From positions 1-36,835 of the forward strand of contig JAHQWJ010000061.1 in the NCBI GenBank assembly GCA_029856125.1: 36,835 nt of DNA, in the 5' to 3' direction. Shown one piece after another: positions 3,266 to 36,835 of the stretch (its first letter is position 1; each line of letters starts with the position of its first letter). Origin of the DNA: Promethearchaeia archaeon (GTDB lineage Archaea; Asgardarchaeota; Lokiarchaeia; Sigyniarchaeales; SOKP01). The translations under genes were made by a program, and so were the position numbers. The notes under the pieces were generated by a model. The model was not told the DNA's origin, searched no databases, and worked only from the letters and a program-made list of their open reading frames with translations.

Positions 3266-4950
3266 TATACTTCTTTCCCTCCATATGCGTATATTTCAGA
3301 AAGTATTTGTTGATCTGTAAAATGCCTTATAATAATCGCGTGGTTAGTACAGGTAGCACCACATACACCACAACCTTTACATAAAACTTGAGTTATTACT
3401 ATCTCTTCTTCTTCATTCTTGCTTATAGCATTATACGGACAGACTTTTATACACACTTCGCAACCTGTGCACAAACTTTTGTTGTAATCAGGCAAAAATG
3501 ACGTAGCACCCTCAACTTCTATTGTATCGTGAGAAATTATCGTACTAGCTCTTGCTGCTGCCGCATAACCTTGAGAAATCGACTCCGTAATGTCGACAGG
3601 CCATTTTGCTGAACCACAAACAAAAACTCCTGCAGTAGCGAAATCCATTGGACGCAGTTTTACGTGTGCTTCTAAAAAGAATCCATTTTCTTCTAACGGA
3701 ACTTTTATCATTTGTGCTAGAGCTTTATTATCATTATTTGAAACTAAAGGTGTTGACAGTACACAAAGATCGTATGGTATTAACAACTCTTCTCCAAGAT
3801 ATTGGTTATATACTTTTATTTGATTCTCTTCTACAGAAGGCACTTTTTCAGGAGAATATTCAATAAAAACAATGCCTGCTTCTCGAGCTCTTCTATAATA
3901 ATCTTCATAATGAGTACCAGGTGTATATAAATCTCTAAAAAGTATGGATACATTTGCTTCAGGATTGTTTTCCTTTAAAATGAGCGCATTTTTTAAAGCA
4001 GTCATACAACACACGCTTGAACAATATACTCTCTCAACATTACGAGATCCAACGCACTGTATCATCACAATATCTTTGGCTTTAACATCATTATTTTTTA
4101 ATTTACTTTCTAATTCGTGTTGTGTAATTCGTATCTTACCATCATAGCCGAAATATCCGGTTGGCGTAAAAAGTGAGGTTCCAACCGCAACGATAATAAC
4201 ACCAATAGTTAAATCAATATTACTCCCATTTTCTTCAACGCTTATCTCAAAATTACCTACAAAACCTTCTATATTTTTTACCTGTGCTGAAGTATGTATT
4301 TTCAGATTTTCCTTACTTTCAATATTTTTCTTAAGATTGTCTAATAATAATTGAGCTTCTTGGTCATTTGGGAAAAGTTTATGCAGTGTTTTCAGCCTTC
4401 CACCTAATTCGTTTTCTCTTTCAATTAAGTGTGTTTCAAATCCTTGATTTGCTAAACTAAGTGCAGCAGTCATCCCTGAAACACCTCCACCAATTACTAA
4501 CGCTGTAGGAGTTGCATCAACTATAATATTTTCGAGTGCTTCAAGCTTAGCTGCTTTTGCCACACCCATACGAATTAAATCTTTAGCCTTGTCAAACGCT
4601 TCCTGTGGATATTTCTGATGGCACCATGTATTTTGGTCTCTTATGTTTACAAAATTAAAGAGATACTCATTTACGCCTTCTTTTTTAACACAATCTCGGA
4701 ATAAAGGTTCATGGGTTCTTGGAGTACATGATGCGACAATTACTCTATTCAAATCATGGTCTTTGATTCCATTCTTAATTTGTGCTAATCCTGTTTCTGA
4801 GCAAGTATAGAGATTATCCTCAGTAAACACTACATTCGGTAGAGTTTTAGAAAATTCGGCAAGAGCTTTAACGTCTATAAGCCCTCCAATATTACTTCCA
4901 CAAGAACAGACAAATACTCCAATTCTAGGTTCTTCTTCTTTATCGGACAT
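3265..4950 (-). CDS. hdrA: HdrA-like protein, equivalent to the C-terminal module of the fused HdrA
   Basis: PRIGVFVCSCG, ASCTPRTHEPLF, VIGGGVSG FAD motif, QCVGSR, YCSSVCC, EAHVKLRP, two C-terminal CxxCxxCxxxC motifs. Confidence 0.93.
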   Translation of the reverse strand: MSDKEEEPRIGVFVCSCGSNIGGLIDVKALAEFSKTLPNVVFTEDNLYTCSETGLAQIKNGIKDHDLNRVIVASCTPRTHEPLFRDCVKKEGVNEYLFNFVNIRDQNTWCHQKYPQEAFDKAKDLIRMGVAKAAKLEALENIIVDATPTALVIGGGVSGMTAALSLANQGFETHLIERENELGGRLKTLHKLFPNDQEAQLLLDNLKKNIESKENLKIHTSAQVKNIEGFVGNFEISVEENGSNIDLTIGVIIVAVGTSLFTPTGYFGYDGKIRITQHELESKLKNNDVKAKDIVMIQCVGSRNVERVYCSSVCCMTALKNALILKENNPEANVSILFRDLYTPGTHYEDYYRRAREAGIVFIEYSPEKVPSVEENQIKVYNQYLGEELLIPYDLCVLSTPLVSNNDNKALAQMIKVPLEENGFFLEAHVKLRPMDFATAGVFVCGSAKWPVDITESISQGYAAAARASTIISHDTIEVEGATSFLPDYNKSLCTGCEVCIKVCPYNAISKNEEEEIVITQVLCKGCGVCGATCTNHAIIIRHFTDQQILSEIYAYGGKEV

Positions 4951-30855: not shown

Positions 30856-31737
30856 ATGTCCAAAGCAGCGAAAATTCTTCCCGATCTAGAGAAGGAAGAC
30901 CTAAGAATTTTAATGGCAATTGAGATCGGTATGAAACGATCAGAATTTGTTACAATAAATAACATTAAATTCTATTCAAGGTACCTTATGGAAGAGACTT
31001 TATTTCGTCTTAAAAAGGTTCATAAATTAGATTTAATAATAAGAGATTCTTCTAAAAACGAAGTAGGCTATACTCTCAATTCAGTTGGTTATGATGTCTT
31101 AGCTCTTCATGCCTTAGTAGAAAAAGAGATAATTGGACAATTAGGACCATTGATTGGAAAAGGAAAAGAATCAGATGTTTATGGATGTATGGATGATAAT
31201 GGGAATATCTTCGCATTAAAAATTTATCGAATTGGGAGAACTAGCTTTAAAAGCATTAAAAGGCTAAGGAGCTTCCTTGGAAATCGAAAACACGCGTCTT
31301 GGTTGTATGTAAATAGACTTGCTGCTAAAAAAGAATATGACGCACTAAACAAGATTTATGAACTTAAATTAGACACACCCAAACCAATTGGGTTTAATAG
31401 ACACATAATAGTTATGTCTTACTTAAGAGGAAAAGAATTAGCCTATCATAGCAAAATTAAAAACCCAATTAAAATGTTTAACAAAATTATCAAGCAAGTT
31501 AAAATAATTTACCAAAAAGCAAAAATGATACACGGAGATCTTGGAGAATTCAATATTGTTGTAGATCATAAAGATAATATCTTAATTATTGATTGGTTAC
31601 AATGGGTTCCTTCAGATCATCCAAATGCAAATTCCCTGTTAGAAAGAGATATAAGAAATGTGTGTAACTTCTTTCAAAAGAAATACCATATAGAAAGCAA
31701 CCCTGTAGAGATTATTCAATCATTTGAAAAAAAGTAA
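30856..31737 (+). CDS. rio2: RIO2-type serine/threonine kinase
   Basis: N-terminal wHTH (AIEIGMK...GYDVLAL), GKGKESDVY, GRTSFK, IHGDLGEFNI, IDWLQ. Confidence 0.93.
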   Translation: MSKAAKILPDLEKEDLRILMAIEIGMKRSEFVTINNIKFYSRYLMEETLFRLKKVHKLDLIIRDSSKNEVGYTLNSVGYDVLALHALVEKEIIGQLGPLIGKGKESDVYGCMDDNGNIFALKIYRIGRTSFKSIKRLRSFLGNRKHASWLYVNRLAAKKEYDALNKIYELKLDTPKPIGFNRHIIVMSYLRGKELAYHSKIKNPIKMFNKIIKQVKIIYQKAKMIHGDLGEFNIVVDHKDNILIIDWLQWVPSDHPNANSLLERDIRNVCNFFQKKYHIESNPVEIIQSFEKK

Positions 31738-31872
31738 ATTTGGAATTAATGCTTATTTATAGTTACTATTCTGGATTCGTCTGGACATCCTCTCTGTTGA
31801 CCTGTAACTAAAGGTTTTGATCATTACATATAGACAATAGTCAAATTGAATTTTATAATCTGACATTATAAA

Positions 31873-32751
31873 TTAACTATAATTATGGTCCGCGATAATT
31901 AATACCTGATGTTCTGGAACAAGGGGTTCACTAATTCCAACATATTTATTTTCAATTACATTAAATCCATATAATTTCAGAATTTTTTTCCATCCTTCCA
32001 GCTTAAGAAAATTAAGAGGTACATTGATATCTTCGTCTCCAATTACTCGATTGTAAAACCAATCAAAAAAACTATTAGTCATACTTATATCATCTTCCTC
32101 AATATAGGCTTCTATAATTACTAAGCGTTTTTTGGTTATTCTCGTTGCTTCCTTCAATAGATGTTCGGGGTCACTCGCATGATGCAACACAGTATATAAA
32201 ATAGTAGTATCTACTTCCCCATCTGCTAAAGGTATCTGTTCCTCTGGATTATATAAGATTAATGGTAAGTCTGTATAATTATAATCCACAATATCAACCA
32301 GTACGACTTCTTTCTTAAGTTGTTTTTTTATTTCTAACGCTAAAAGACCATCTCCCGCACCAAGATCAAGTATCTTCTCTCCTACGATGTAGTCTTCTAC
32401 TAATTCAAAACTCCTTTTTACACGTTTAATTGCATTACCCTTTCGATCTTTTTCATTATCGACGCGTTTTCTGAGAAACTTTCGCAGTGTTTCTTCAACC
32501 TTAATAAGAGGTATTCCTTTTTTCAGGCCTTTAGTTATGGTTCTGTTTACATATAACCAAAAAATATATCTTTTAAGAAAATTTAGATTAGCATTTTTCA
32601 TGGCAGATAAAAATAATGACTGGATCTCATTCCAATAGTGCTTGTTTTTTTTGTTTTTCTTAGAAAATACTGGATATATGAGATCTTCCACAACATCTAT
32701 ATCGTTTTGATTAGTAGGTTTGTAAAATTTAATTATATCTTCTTGAATCAT
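31873..32751 (-). CDS. Class I SAM-dependent methyltransferase with N-terminal extension
   Basis: ILDLGAGDG, VDIVDY, VLHHASDPEHLLKEA. Confidence 0.88.
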   Translation of the reverse strand: MIQEDIIKFYKPTNQNDIDVVEDLIYPVFSKKNKKNKHYWNEIQSLFLSAMKNANLNFLKRYIFWLYVNRTITKGLKKGIPLIKVEETLRKFLRKRVDNEKDRKGNAIKRVKRSFELVEDYIVGEKILDLGAGDGLLALEIKKQLKKEVVLVDIVDYNYTDLPLILYNPEEQIPLADGEVDTTILYTVLHHASDPEHLLKEATRITKKRLVIIEAYIEEDDISMTNSFFDWFYNRVIGDEDINVPLNFLKLEGWKKILKLYGFNVIENKYVGISEPLVPEHQVLIIADHNYS

Positions 32752-32779
32752 TTATTTGTCATAATCATTTAATTTTTAA

Positions 32780-32803
32780 ATAAGTGAGTATTTACTCACT
32801 TAT
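32780..32803. promoter_or_regulatory. Palindromic operator 1 (putative TetR site)
   Basis: ATAAGTGAGTA-TT-TACTCACTTAT: perfect 11-bp arms between the divergent methyltransferase and TetR genes. Confidence 0.8.
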
Positions 32804-32810
32804 AAAATTT

Positions 32811-32826
32811 ATGAGTAATTACTCAT
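32811..32826. promoter_or_regulatory. Palindromic operator 2 (putative TetR site)
   Basis: ATGAGTAATTACTCAT perfect palindrome sharing core TGAGTAnnTACTCA with operator 1. Confidence 0.8.
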
Positions 32827-32840
32827 TTAATATTATTATA

Positions 32841-33455
32841 ATGTCAAGCAAAAAATTTTCACGAAATAAACAAGAAAAAATTAACAAGATTTATGATACA
32901 TTTTTTAAACTAATTTTAAATCAAGGATATCACAAAACAAGCACAAATCATGTTGCAAAATCAGCTAAGATTAGTATTGGTACGATTTATAAATATTTTC
33001 CGAAAGGGAAAGAAGATATTATAAGAAAATATTTTGAAGAATCGATGGAAACTTTTTTGGATAGTCAGAATTTAAGTAACATGAATGAAGAAAATATAAG
33101 AGATTCTCTCAATCATTTTGTTTTAGATTTATTTAAAAATCACGAGGAAAATAAAGGATATAATCTAGCTTTTAGGTCCGCTATACAATCTGATAAAATA
33201 TTGCATAATGCACACAAAGAGAAGATTTTAAATATTTTTAAAGATAAAGTGCAGAAATTAAGGAAGACAAATGAAAATTTGAAACAAATATCCGAGAAAA
33301 GATTAGTCGATGTATTTATCTTCTTGTATAATCTTGTTAATGCGATTATATATCATCATTTATCTGTAATGGAATTATTTGATACAGATGATAAATTTGT
33401 TGAATATCTTTCAAATTTAGTAGCTTTTTCATTAAAGTATTATCTTAAAACGTAA
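32841..33455 (+). CDS. TetR/AcrR family transcriptional regulator
   Basis: GYHKTSTNHVAKSAKISIGTIYKYFP HTH; ATG 32841 preferred because upstream starts fall within the operators. Confidence 0.92.
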   Translation: MSSKKFSRNKQEKINKIYDTFFKLILNQGYHKTSTNHVAKSAKISIGTIYKYFPKGKEDIIRKYFEESMETFLDSQNLSNMNEENIRDSLNHFVLDLFKNHEENKGYNLAFRSAIQSDKILHNAHKEKILNIFKDKVQKLRKTNENLKQISEKRLVDVFIFLYNLVNAIIYHHLSVMELFDTDDKFVEYLSNLVAFSLKYYLKT

Positions 33456-33466
33456 CGGAAAAGCTT

Positions 33467-34087
33467 TCAAATGTTTCCCTCAATAATGTTATTTTTATTT
33501 AGACTACCTTGAATAATCACATCTTCTATATTCTTTAAAAACTCAGTTTTAAGGTCTATTGTAAGTGTTTTTAAATATGCTATTAAATCATCTACTTTCA
33601 ATTGTTTTCGTAAGATTGATAACTTTAAAAGCGAATTCTTCCGACCAACTCGAATTAATTCACCCAAACCTTTCTTTATGACTGGTAAATTTTGGAGCGA
33701 TGTGATTGAAAAAATTACATTAAAAGTATCTTGTCTTAGCGGTAAGTTTTCGATATCTCCTAAAATTAGATTTATATCTTCAATATCTTTTATTTTTTTA
33801 GATTTGTCACAAAAGTTCATTAGCATTTTCCAAGAAATATCTATTCCAATATATTTGACCTTCTTCTTTAGATTATCGATATTTAAGTTAAAAACATGTT
33901 CAATTAATAGGCCTGTACCACAACCAGCATCTAGAATGGTTTTATAATTTAAATTACAATTTCTAAAAAGAATTTTATACTTTTCTTTTTGGATTTTACG
34001 ATATCTATCATCATAAAAGCTTGCAGTTGAATTATATTTGGCGATAATATTTTTTTTTCTCTCTGAATCTTTAGTTGGAGGTTTCAA
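33467..34087 (-). CDS. Class I SAM-dependent methyltransferase
   Basis: YNSTASFYDDRY, ILDAGCGTG, GIDIS, GDIENLP. Confidence 0.9.
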   Translation of the reverse strand: MKPPTKDSERKKNIIAKYNSTASFYDDRYRKIQKEKYKILFRNCNLNYKTILDAGCGTGLLIEHVFNLNIDNLKKKVKYIGIDISWKMLMNFCDKSKKIKDIEDINLILGDIENLPLRQDTFNVIFSITSLQNLPVIKKGLGELIRVGRKNSLLKLSILRKQLKVDDLIAYLKTLTIDLKTEFLKNIEDVIIQGSLNKNNIIEGNI

Positions 34088-34180: not shown

Positions 34181-34435
34181 ATGTCAAGTCAGAATAATAG
34201 AAATAAGAACCCTTTAAATATATTACAGGCCGCTCAAAACAGTCAAATCTTGCTCAGATTAAAAGATGGTACAGAATACAAGGGTTTATTAAAAGAGATC
34301 GATGCTTACATGAACATGATTCTAGAAAATGCTACGGAAATCATGGACGGCAGCCCTGTGGCAAAATACAACGAGATTTTTATACGCGGGAATAATCTGC
34401 TGTTTATAAAACCAGATGCTTCTCAAATTATGTAA
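34181..34435 (+). CDS. Sm/LSm-family RNA-binding protein
   Basis: Sm1 EYKGLLKEIDAYMNMILEN and Sm2 EIFIRGNNLLFI. Confidence 0.95.
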   Translation: MSSQNNRNKNPLNILQAAQNSQILLRLKDGTEYKGLLKEIDAYMNMILENATEIMDGSPVAKYNEIFIRGNNLLFIKPDASQIM

Positions 34436-34449
34436 GTTGAGAGCAAAAA

Positions 34450-34893
34450 TTGAAAATTAGCAACACTCCAGATTCTAATTTCATTTCAGTTATTGGTTAT
34501 GGTACGTTCATAACCCGTGGTCTTTGGAAAAATAAATTCAATGTTGAAGTGTGCACTGTAATTAATTATTCAAGGATTTTCCCCGGAAATAACTGGTTCC
34601 CTTACGCGTTAAAATCAGCTGGCTCATTTAAAGCGTTAAAATTTGATGTTACTAAAGAAGAAATATATTTCTTGGATAAAATCGAAGGCGTAAACAACGG
34701 CTTGTTTAAACGAGTAATGGTTGATATTTTATTAAAAAATAATCGGCCCTCGTCTGCTTTTATGTACGTTCCTACTGAAGAGACGATAGTTTCTCAAAAA
34801 TTAGCTTTAGAATCAGACAAAATTGATCGATGGAAAGAGAAAATCAAGAAGATACCAGAAGTTGTAAGAAAATTTCCCGATTTGTTCACATGA
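34450..34893 (+). CDS. Gamma-glutamylcyclotransferase (AIG2-like) family protein
   Basis: GYGTF, FPYAL, LDKIEG...LFKR, AFMYV. Confidence 0.8.
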   Translation: MKISNTPDSNFISVIGYGTFITRGLWKNKFNVEVCTVINYSRIFPGNNWFPYALKSAGSFKALKFDVTKEEIYFLDKIEGVNNGLFKRVMVDILLKNNRPSSAFMYVPTEETIVSQKLALESDKIDRWKEKIKKIPEVVRKFPDLFT

Positions 34894-34947
34894 TTAAGAG
34901 ATAATCTTTGAAACTACAATTTTATTCCAAATATTTGAATATGATGC
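34894..34947 (-). pseudogene. Remnant of PPP phosphatase 3' end
   Basis: Reads ASYSNIWNKIVVSKIIS* versus ASYAIIRNKTVTPKIIS* of the intact gene (35632-35685), colinear without gaps. Confidence 0.8.
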
Positions 34948-35000
34948 AAATCAGCTAAATATATAAAAACTTTGACAATAAAAACAAAAATTCATCTCTC

Positions 35001-35375
35001 TTAGGGATAGTATATTCCAGGAGGATGTAATTTATGTTGACACTGTTGATTAAACGTATAACAAGGCTCGCAATACCATGCATTTAAAACAGGGTTGTAT
35101 ACTAAATCCAAATCTCTCCTACCGCACAAACTACAATGAACAACCGAACGGGAAAAATGAAGCTTCAATTTTTCGCTTTCAAAATATATTCTCAGATTTT
35201 TTTCTTTCTTTTCGGCGTAATTCAGCGATTCGTCGTGCCTAACGGTATCCATTTCTTTAATATATCTCGAATAATGAAGCTCAAATGCCTTACAAAGCAG
35301 ATTTCTTAATTCAGTTCTAATTTTGCGCAATCGAGGATCTTTAAGTGTGATTAATCGTTTTTCCTTTTTTCTCAT
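35001..35375 (-). CDS. Hypothetical protein with C-terminal CxxC...CxxC zinc finger
   Basis: Basic helical N-terminus, CSLC-x17-CEPC. Confidence 0.75.
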   Translation of the reverse strand: MRKKEKRLITLKDPRLRKIRTELRNLLCKAFELHYSRYIKEMDTVRHDESLNYAEKKEKNLRIYFESEKLKLHFSRSVVHCSLCGRRDLDLVYNPVLNAWYCEPCYTFNQQCQHKLHPPGIYYP

Positions 35376-35431
35376 AATTTAATAATAAAAAAATTAAAAT
35401 TTAAGCTTTATTCTCTTAAAAAGGCATCTGG

Positions 35432-35549
35432 GATTCTAGAGAACGCAACTGAAATCATGGATGGTAGCCCAATGGCGAAAGACAACGAAATTTTTATATG
35501 TGGTAATAATTTACCGTTTATGAAACCAGACGCTTCCCAAATTATGTAA
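35432..35549 (+). pseudogene. Diverged remnant of Sm/LSm gene 3' half
   Basis: 118 nt ungapped match to 34318-34435, 20 mismatches by manual count (15 synonymous, 5 non-synonymous); ILENATEIMDGSPMAKDNEIFICGNNLPFMKPDASQIM*. Confidence 0.92.
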
Positions 35550-35563
35550 ATTGAGAATATTCA

Positions 35564-35631
35564 TTGAGAAAAAACATTTTACTATATTCTGATTTCATTT
35601 AAGTTGAAATATTCCCAATCTATTTACATGA
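35564..35631 (+). pseudogene. Internally deleted GGCT remnant
   Basis: TTG at the same 15-nt offset after the Sm stop as in the intact locus; ATTCTGATTTCATTTAAGTT vs ATTCTAATTTCATTTCAGTT (5' part) joined to GAAATATTCCCAATCTATTTACATGA vs GAAAATTTCCCGATTTGTTCACATGA (3' part). Confidence 0.75.
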
Positions 35632-36528
35632 TTAAGAGATAATCTTAGGTGTCACAGTTTTATTTCTAATAATTGCGTACGATGCAGGAATTATGGGTAC
35701 CGTACCTCGATAATTAGCCGAAGAAAAAATTGACAGCAATCGTTTGTTAAAAAACCACTTGTAACCCTCAGGAAACCTTTCATGAGCTCTTATTAAGTAA
35801 TCTAATTTGTTTTCTCGCATAAAATCTGTAAATACATCCTTTCCAAAGAATTTTATATCTTTTCCCCTAAAACTTTCCGTAAAGCCTTTTAGATTGGGTT
35901 TAGGATCGTTCCACATAATTTGAAGTAGACTTTTAGCTGTGTTTTCAAAAGTCCAATTAATTTCTGATGTTTTAGTACCTCTTAATCTATTAATAGCATT
36001 AATATCCTCTGGAATGCCACCATGAAGACATAATATGGATTCATTAACTAAAACACAATAGGGAAGTGCGTTGTATATAGCTTCAACTTGGTTAAATTTC
36101 TTAGGGTCCTTAAATCGTTTCAGAAAATCTTGAAAAAACCCATAATTCTTATTAACTTCTAAGGTTTCGTGGTTCCCCCTTAGAAGATAAAATTTATTAG
36201 AATCTTTAATTTTCAATGCTAGGACCAAAATAAGACATTCTAACTGATATAAACCACGATCAACGATATCACCTAAAAAGATAACATATTTCGGGTTCTC
36301 TGGTTTGATGATTTCCACCAATCTCATCAAACTTTTCAAATCCCCATGGAGATCTCCAATTACAATTACTTTCTCATGTGGATATTTTTGCTTTAACTCC
36401 AATATTATAGTTTCTTCTCTAAACAGCTTAACTGCTTCACGAAAAACTAAACTAAGCTGATCAAAATCTAATTTAGTTATTAAGTATGGATTTTTTATTA
36501 TATTATTTAGGAATGATTGTTCTATCAA
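35632..36528 (-). CDS. PPP-family serine/threonine protein phosphatase
   Basis: GDLHG, GDIVDRG, LRGNHE, LHGGI, MWNDP, IRAHE, IFSSANY. Confidence 0.95.
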   Translation of the reverse strand: MIEQSFLNNIIKNPYLITKLDFDQLSLVFREAVKLFREETIILELKQKYPHEKVIVIGDLHGDLKSLMRLVEIIKPENPKYVIFLGDIVDRGLYQLECLILVLALKIKDSNKFYLLRGNHETLEVNKNYGFFQDFLKRFKDPKKFNQVEAIYNALPYCVLVNESILCLHGGIPEDINAINRLRGTKTSEINWTFENTAKSLLQIMWNDPKPNLKGFTESFRGKDIKFFGKDVFTDFMRENKLDYLIRAHERFPEGYKWFFNKRLLSIFSSANYRGTVPIIPASYAIIRNKTVTPKIIS

Positions 36529-36692
36529 TTTTCACATATGATTAAATGGTGCTATTTTAAAAATCTCTAATAACAATATCGTTATTTTAAAATTAATATC
36601 TTACAGTTTTATAAATAAAGGCTATGATTATAAAAGTAGATATAATAAAAGCCTTTAATGAAATGATTTCTAAATCGGTTTACTGAAAAATT

Positions 36693-36835
36693 TTGCCATA
36701 TAAAAGCACTACTTTTACCTTAGAATCGGTAATTAAGAATTTCGAAGAAAAAAGAATTACTGAAAAAATCAATACCCGCAATCGAGGGGTAATATATACA
36801 CCTCAACCGATTGCTGATCTAATGGTATTAAATAT
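36693..36835 (+). CDS. Probable N6-adenine DNA methyltransferase / type IIG R-M protein, 5' part only
   Basis: From TTG 36693: MPYKSTTFTLESVIKNFEEKRITEKINTRNRGVIYTPQPIADLMVLN..., containing the G-x-x-YTP-x-x-IA motif X; truncated by the window edge. Confidence 0.6.
   Translation, partial: MPYKSTTFTLESVIKNFEEKRITEKINTRNRGVIYTPQPIADLMVLN

Follow-up and report, generated by a model that had tools for sequence, protein, structure and literature searches.

Organization of the Sm–GGCT–PPP locus

The DNA analysed here is the 36,835-nucleotide metagenome-assembled contig JAHQWJ010000061.1 (G000:C61) of a Promethearchaeia archaeon (genome G000). We refer to the whole stretch as the window; its positions serve as coordinates throughout, and its sequence ends at 36835, ~300 bp beyond the start of a gene for a PPP-family metallophosphatase. 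Close to this end, a small zinc-ribbon gene (ZnF) is embedded among partial copies of the three genes that surround it. The locus opens on the forward strand with an intact Sm/LSM gene (34181–34435; Pfam LSM, E = 3.7e-21), whose part from 34318 forms the first copy of a direct repeat termed D1, and an intact GGACT/AIG2-like gene (gamma-glutamyl cyclotransferase-like, hereafter GGCT; 34450–34893; Pfam GGACT, E = 5.7e-5). A PPP 3' remnant, the final 55 nt of a PPP gene, occupies the reverse strand at 34894–34948, and the stop codons of GGCT and of this remnant are both covered by the first copy of a 21-mer (34888–34908, forward strand). In the left junction J_L (34943–34966, forward strand), a GATGCA microhomology leads into 18 nt of an alternative Sm C-terminus, kept as a stub (NQLNI-stop; 34949–34966). 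The cargo, ZnF, is an intact open reading frame (ORF) on the reverse strand (35001–35375) encoding a basic protein of 124 aa whose C-terminal region bears a CxxC...CxxC zinc ribbon. Its conserved promoter and 5' flank (35376–35431, reverse strand) include, from ~35416, a degenerate stub of a 371-aa ORF (ORF371) and the right junction J_R to Sm codon 41, as delineated by alignments with the ZnF loci of G016, L069, Lx and G015 described below. These are followed on the forward strand by an Sm 3' remnant that retains codons 47–84 and the stop in frame (35432–35549; residues 47–84 matched at 35433–35546 by tblastn), a copy of the spacer with a deleted GGCT remnant in which the 5' ~42 nt are fused to the 3' 26 nt of the gene (35550–35631), and the second copy of the 21-mer (35626–35646). 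The intact PPP gene (35632–36528; Pfam Metallophos, E = 1.8e-31) closes the locus on the reverse strand. A 30-codon ORF lies within the Sm remnant (35457–35549). A first-pass annotation of the window had described this order correctly, with all remnants between the 21-mers and all intact genes outside, and repeat analysis, Pfam, tblastn and an independent assembly confirm it.

The partial copies resolve into two direct repeats. D1 relates 34318–34491 to 35432–35605 (174 nt, 78% identity), and D2, which holds the perfect 21-mer, relates 34868–34948 to 35606–35686 (81 nt, 77% identity). Together they represent the two ends of a single host segment reaching from Sm codon 41/47 to PPP nt 55, of which the second copy lacks most of GGCT; the duplicated stretch amounts to ~640 bp of host genes. 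The cargo therefore has one contiguous host segment repeated in direct orientation on either side, as expected of a Campbell-type insertion, and the topology fits the single-crossover integration that the annotation had proposed. Also in line with its prediction that excision between the 21-mers restores a clean locus, deleting the intervening 738 bp yields an arrangement colinear with those of the related genomes G010, G007 and G134. The repeat search of the window revealed no terminal inverted repeats bracketing the cassette, the signature sought for a transposon or insertion sequence.

The 21-mer occurs exactly twice in the window (at 34888 and 35626; 0.01 occurrences expected) and only twice in the 3.69-Mb genome, even when up to 2 mismatches are allowed. 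Both convergent genes have their C-termini encoded in it, and 20 of its 21 positions are conserved in G135 and in G007, which carries it once. Column shuffling returned a perfect run of at least 21 nt with P = 0.18 when all 255 aligned columns were used and P = 0.03 for D2 only, so that, given homologous copies, such a run is not very unlikely. The 21-mer thus reads as the conserved overlap of two gene ends and not as the att-like core that had been suggested, since a second lineage with the same composite (Lx, below) lacks a perfect flanking repeat. Similarity to other genomes changes at the 21-mers: of 40 positions compared with G010, the PPP remnant shares 28 and the 3' end of the intact PPP gene 37. 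The second copy is itself a mosaic of old Sm codons 41–46, young Sm codons 47–84 and an old intergenic/GGCT 5' stretch. Because the similarity switches at the 21-mer in both copies, a crossover at this position is possible.

Such a repeat could also betray a faulty assembly, in which two strains were fused through a shared 21-mer. A k-mer size of 21 is a common first choice in assemblers and equals the repeat length, the window, itself a product of metagenome assembly, stops 300 bp beyond PPP, and the genome carries 6% contamination. Against this, an independent European Nucleotide Archive (ENA) assembly contains a contig (ERZ25073474 NODE_17277, here L058; coverage 3.7) that matches window positions 34382–36835 free of gaps at 98.5% identity, shows the same order with both 21-mers, differs at 36 positions and extends 3.5 kb past the window end. 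The same order is found again on Lx contigs from at least five samples (both contig versions counted). An assembly artefact was ruled out on these grounds, and a chimera of two strains, the finding that the annotation had named as fatal to its proposal, is scarcely credible. The GGCT gene and all remnants are identical between G000 and L058, and ZnF differs at 4 positions; 30 of the 36 differences fall inside PPP, 28 of them at 35651–35929. This clustering marks the interval as a recombination patch starting at the cassette edge. Within part of it, the sister strain is 95–96% identical to G134, compared with 86–93% for G000.

The ZnF cassette in related lineages

The closest relatives of G000 are G007, G010 and G134, with 90–94% nucleotide identity over the rest of the window, and all three are canonical at this locus. 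The arrangement methyltransferase (MT)–Sm–GGCT–PPP is common in the genus (G010, G007, G134, G020, G024, G011, G014 and others), so the empty sites with a single repeat copy that the annotation proposed to seek in related Lokiarchaeia do exist. The intact genes of G000 outside the cassette conform to this background: its Sm gene shows ~90% nucleotide identity to G010/G007, which is the backbone level, and its GGCT shows 84% aa identity to G010, G007 and G134. The flanks were compared to see whether the G000 backbone is G135-like at this locus, in which case the second copy would be the resident one; they are 93–94% identical to G134 on the left and ~90% identical to all relatives on the right. 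Two further genomes of the same clade, G135 (L073, G135:C269) and G142 (L075, G142:C32), carry Sm, a ~68-nt deleted GGCT remnant and PPP, with neither GGCT nor ZnF. The endpoints of this deletion lie within 7 nt of those in the second copy of G000 without being identical to them, and a common origin of the two GGCT deletions is likely.

The ZnF protein has no match in Pfam or NCBIfam, and the protein atlas gave nothing usable. Its dN/dS of 0.13–0.24 against orthologues points to purifying selection. An orthologue is present in 6 of the 135 genomes of the family. The native position of ZnF is directly downstream of Sm in convergent orientation, with ORF371, for which Pfam and NCBIfam identified no family, preceding it on the ZnF strand; this order is found in G016, G080, NCBI assembly GCA_019058245.1 and contigs L066 and L069/L070. 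Every ZnF orthologue with long enough context resides in the Sm neighbourhood, except that on L059, and in GCA_019058245.1 the gene comes after an Sm end of canonical type, with no sign of an insertion. The synonymous divergence (pS), used to ask whether ZnF was transferred more recently than the backbone, is 0.49–0.52 for ZnF, compared with 0.47–0.78 for neighbouring genes. Judged from its genomic contexts, the cargo is not foreign to the locus. In addition, a 629-bp contig (L065; ENA ERZ27251120 k141_380680) holds the closest ZnF relative (90% nucleotide identity), followed by a same-strand GGCT fragment from codon 21 that shares 97% identity with G000 across 35 nt; it represents either another arrangement or a chimeric short contig. 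In another genus, L084 (G090:C46) shows MT and Sm followed by a convergent ZnF, a 16-residue ZnF fragment and PPP on the ZnF strand, without GGCT and without ORF371.

Both edges of the cassette in G000 preserve traces of this native setting. The left edge is the alternative Sm end (NQLNI-stop) otherwise found in G016, G020, G008 and G004, and its stub is joined to the PPP remnant at the GATGCA microhomology. At the right edge, the ZnF promoter is followed by an 18-nt stop-proximal stub of ORF371 that is easily recognised in Lx but degenerate in G000, and a GAT microhomology links this stub to Sm codon 41. The cassette thus holds stubs of both native ZnF neighbours, Sm and ORF371. The alignments show directly the junctions, the stubs and the fact that lineages have junctions in common. 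The alternative Sm C-terminus (DANQLKI-stop) occurs in four species, namely G020 (L054), G008 (L031), G004 (L032) and G016 (L050). In these species, a decayed copy of the canonical final 16 nt of Sm lies displaced just upstream of GGCT; this scar is kept without ZnF in G020, G008 and G004. In G010 (L052, G010:C96, about 4889–4920), 15 bp of the Sm stop region are duplicated in tandem.

The same composite is present in a distant lineage, Lx, which is represented by contigs L067 and L068, which between them come from at least five samples. Its order is Sm-GGCT-PPP'-ZnF-Sm'(41–77)-PPP, and both junctions recur at the site where G000 has them, although identity between the two lineages is only 69% (aa; pS 0.52) in ZnF, 64% in GGCT and 64–69% in PPP. 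The PPP remnants of Lx and G000 share a derived motif, and both are of the G000-clade type, not of the type of Lx's own PPP. In the alignment of the Lx Sm-to-GGCT region, the first ~490 nt (Sm, spacer and first half of GGCT) are 80–94% identical to G130/G013, whereas the last ~220 nt of GGCT, beside the cassette, are 77–85% identical to the G000 clade and 54–70% identical to G130/G013/G011. It follows from this mosaic that homologous recombination brought the cassette into Lx, the crossover lying within GGCT. At the other end, Sm' codon 77 is joined to the PPP stop region. A third instance, G015, shares the right junction; its left junction differs, connecting ~codon 27 of a GGCT copy to ~codon 67 of Sm, and its ZnF is a pseudogene. 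As the same junctions recur in Lx and, for the right one only, in G015, the composite predates G000.

These comparisons also bear on a site-specific mobile element or satellite that would use the 21-mer or GATGC as attachment or target site, with a recombinase encoded elsewhere. Three breakpoints do fall at GATGC/GAT motifs, the left edge of the cassette falls where, in the G016 clade, the alternative Sm end starts, and the direct repeat is perfect. However, searches with Pfam and NCBIfam detected no recombinase or transposase in the cassette, in ORF371 or in the neighbouring genes, and none was seen in or beside any copy, in agreement with the annotation's remark that no integrase is present. 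The 21-mer is confined to this locus in the genome, Lx has no identical core, and the cassette is not framed by terminal inverted repeats. The confinement of well-anchored orthologues to the Sm neighbourhood (L059 excepted) and the unmarked insertion-free context in GCA_019058245.1 likewise speak against an element with its own target site. Furthermore, at eight loci carrying ZnF paralogues, no link between the family and host-gene duplications was found; these loci hold tandem paralogues only, with no host remnants or flanking host-gene repeats. A site-specific element is accordingly very unlikely. Of the two routes that the annotation had offered, delivery by homology between lineages gains support from the origin of the Sm remnant (below), the co-import of ~220 nt of GGCT in Lx and the lack of a recombinase, while nothing points to a satellite.

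Ages of the remnants and origin of the composite

The remnants in G000 differ in age and affinity. The Sm remnant differs from the intact copy by 15 synonymous and 5 non-synonymous changes, all 5 at residues invariant in the genus. Relative to functional Sm genes, it shows 7 synonymous plus 5 non-synonymous differences from G135, 8 plus 5 from G142 and 10 plus 5 from G134; its nearest functional counterpart is thus that of G135, not that of G000 itself. These counts indicate that the remnant derives from a functional Sm gene of the G134/G135/G142 subgroup and is young, with ~5% non-synonymous decay. By comparison, the PPP remnant outside the 21-mer is 68–75% identical to any functional PPP, the nearest being that of G135, and looks old. 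The inner remnants and the outer genes therefore differ in lineage affinity, which indicates that at least one inter-lineage recombination event shaped the G000 copy. Furthermore, remnants of unequal age would not result from one crossover; such a mixture could come from gene conversion of a patch across the strongly conserved Sm segment.

An alternative derivation is entirely local: a tandem duplication within the G000 lineage that then decayed, with ZnF inserted at the junction and no transfer between lineages. Formally, the structure does equal a tandem duplication with an insert at its junction, and junction microhomology is typical of replication-based duplication. In-situ duplication with neutral decay predicts non-synonymous and synonymous changes at ~3:1, and it was rejected on the observed 5 to 15. 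The ratio of non-synonymous to synonymous divergence (pN/pS) between the Sm remnant and the intact copy is ~0.08, where ~0.5 would be expected, and ~30 non-synonymous changes would be expected where 5 are seen. In addition, the greater closeness of the remnant to the Sm gene of G135 than to that of G000 and the import recorded in the Lx GGCT mosaic both contradict a local origin, which we regard as highly improbable. A variant in which the intact copy was overwritten later is covered by the explanation that we favour.

The annotation had itself proposed that a circle of ~740 bp carrying Sm3'-GGCT-PPP3' plus ZnF, recombining once at the 21-mer with a clean G000 locus, created the composite; with GGCT still whole, the circle would measure ~1.1 kb. 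Besides the topology, the switches of similarity at both 21-mers, flanks that are backbone-like right up to these repeats, an Sm remnant from another lineage and the empty sites in close relatives all accord with it. The composite is, however, older than G000, given its junctions in Lx and G015, and the unequal ages of the remnants are not obtainable from one crossover; Lx lacks a perfect repeat, and the 21-mer is a conserved dual-coding stretch whose perfection could arise by chance with P of 0.03–0.18. Creation of the composite in this way is hence unlikely and its origin in a circle integration is not upheld, although a circle is a possible route by which G000 obtained an allele that already existed.

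We consider it probable that the locus carries an old duplication-insertion allele of Sm-GGCT-PPP, built through microhomologies and spread by homologous recombination, and not mobile by itself. In the proposed course of events, ZnF would have been excised from its native place downstream of Sm together with short stubs of both neighbours. Illegitimate recombination at microhomologies of 3–6 nt (GATGCA, GAT) would then have joined it into a partial duplication comprising Sm (codon 41 to the end), GGCT and the last 55 nt of PPP. With the flanking genes as anchors, homologous recombination could carry the allele into other species, a step for which no recombinase would be needed. The allele could be lost in the same manner: recombination through D2 would return the clean Sm-GGCT-PPP order, and recombination through D1 would leave Sm-ΔGGCT-PPP without ZnF, the predicted product that the arrangement of G135 and G142 would represent. 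In G000, the allele was either imported, by a single crossover near the 21-mer or by a double crossover, or inherited, with its left copy later overwritten. More tentatively, and with considerable doubt, the ZnF cassette might be a recombinase-free 'homology-riding' mobile cassette whose truncated host-gene copies serve as recombination arms; it would leave as a small circle or enter as a fragment at the same locus in other Lokiarchaeial species, and excision through the wrong repeat would destroy a host gene, as the loss of GGCT in G135 and G142 would illustrate.

Several observations weigh against the favoured account of an old, recombination-spread allele. The ZnF tree separates the copies of cassette type: the G000 protein is nearer to that of G016 (76% aa identity) than to that of Lx (69%), and the Lx protein is nearest to the native-type L069 (85%). 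Since cassette copies do not group together, either the ZnF core went through an additional conversion or the junctions have two separate origins. In the spacer and GGCT 5' remnant, a stretch of ~35 nt (about 35557–35590) is far more diverged than the adjoining Sm remnant: it is ~40% diverged from every sampled relative, compared with 90% identity between the Sm remnant and G135, and the 135 family genomes contain no closer relative of it. The deletion endpoints in G135/G142 are near those of G000, yet not the same. Moreover, every phylogenetic signal comes from segments of 40–120 nt.

Recombination extends to the genes upstream of the locus. The window contains a TetR gene on the forward strand (32784–33455) and the MT gene on the reverse strand (33467–34087). 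Positions 33460–33990 are 93–100% identical to G016/G020, and from ~34000 onwards the sequence is 90–96% identical and G010/G007-like. The former interval, which covers most of the MT gene, is only 45–70% identical to the closest relatives of G000. TetR and one further gene (31734–33481) are absent from G007/G010 and present in G020 and G130. On these similarities, 31734–33990 appears to be a very recent inter-species import; together with the PPP patch that differs between the two strains, this shows that recombination is frequent at this locus. On the other side of PPP, window positions 36693–36835 form the start of a gene for a 677-aa MmeI-like N6 methyltransferase/restriction protein (L058:1650–3683; Pfam N6_Mtase, MmeI_Mtase and Eco57I).

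Comparison with known systems

The locus offers a base-pair-resolved case of accessory-gene shuffling between uncultured Asgard species without mobile-element machinery. Microhomology joins, homologous recombination at 10–25% divergence and gene-conversion patches are seen together at one 1.4-kb locus, and the loss of such alleles through the wrong repeat can cost the host a gene. These features bear on gene flow in the lineage closest to eukaryotes.

Campbell-type insertion-duplication is familiar from 'pop-in/pop-out' genetics and from the integration of circularised fragments. As in that process, the cargo lies between direct repeats of a host segment, excision between repeats restores the locus and no dedicated recombinase is needed. 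In contrast, divergence between the repeats here is 22% and their ages are mixed, and a circular form is only hypothetical. A further difference is that the composite is common to distant lineages and therefore did not originate in the event that brought it into G000.

Homology-facilitated illegitimate recombination is described in naturally competent bacteria and in conjugation of E. coli, with one end anchored by homology and the other joined at a microhomology of a few bases (PMC3240628). The same combination of homology and a 3–10-nt microhomology junction is found here in the GGCT crossover of Lx and its join of Sm' codon 77 to the PPP stop, and in the GATGCA/GAT joins of G000 and Lx. That process is documented by experiment in bacteria, whereas ours is reconstructed from the genomes of uncultured Lokiarchaeia.

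A resemblance is also seen to T6SS (type VI secretion) loci of Vibrio cholerae, for which a report describes orphan immunity genes left behind and sequential displacement arrays at conserved loci (PMC5361080). In both cases, modules arriving at a conserved locus recombine there, and what is left of earlier occupants makes up lineage-specific arrays. Unlike in the T6SS arrays, the remnants in G000 are truncated housekeeping genes and not retained functional ones, and the cargo is a single small gene. Integrated elements bearing integrases are reported from Asgard archaea (PMC11529989, PMC8813620). The ZnF cassette is similar in being an insertion with flanking repeats in an Asgard genome; compared with those elements, it has no integrase and no att site reused elsewhere, its cargo measures 0.5 kb and it is bound to one locus. 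The individual mechanisms, namely illegitimate joins at microhomologies, homology-anchored import and loss through direct repeats, already have precedents in bacteria (PMC3240628) and in laboratory genetics of archaea; what the Sm-GGCT-PPP locus adds is an example of this known kind, seen in Lokiarchaeia.

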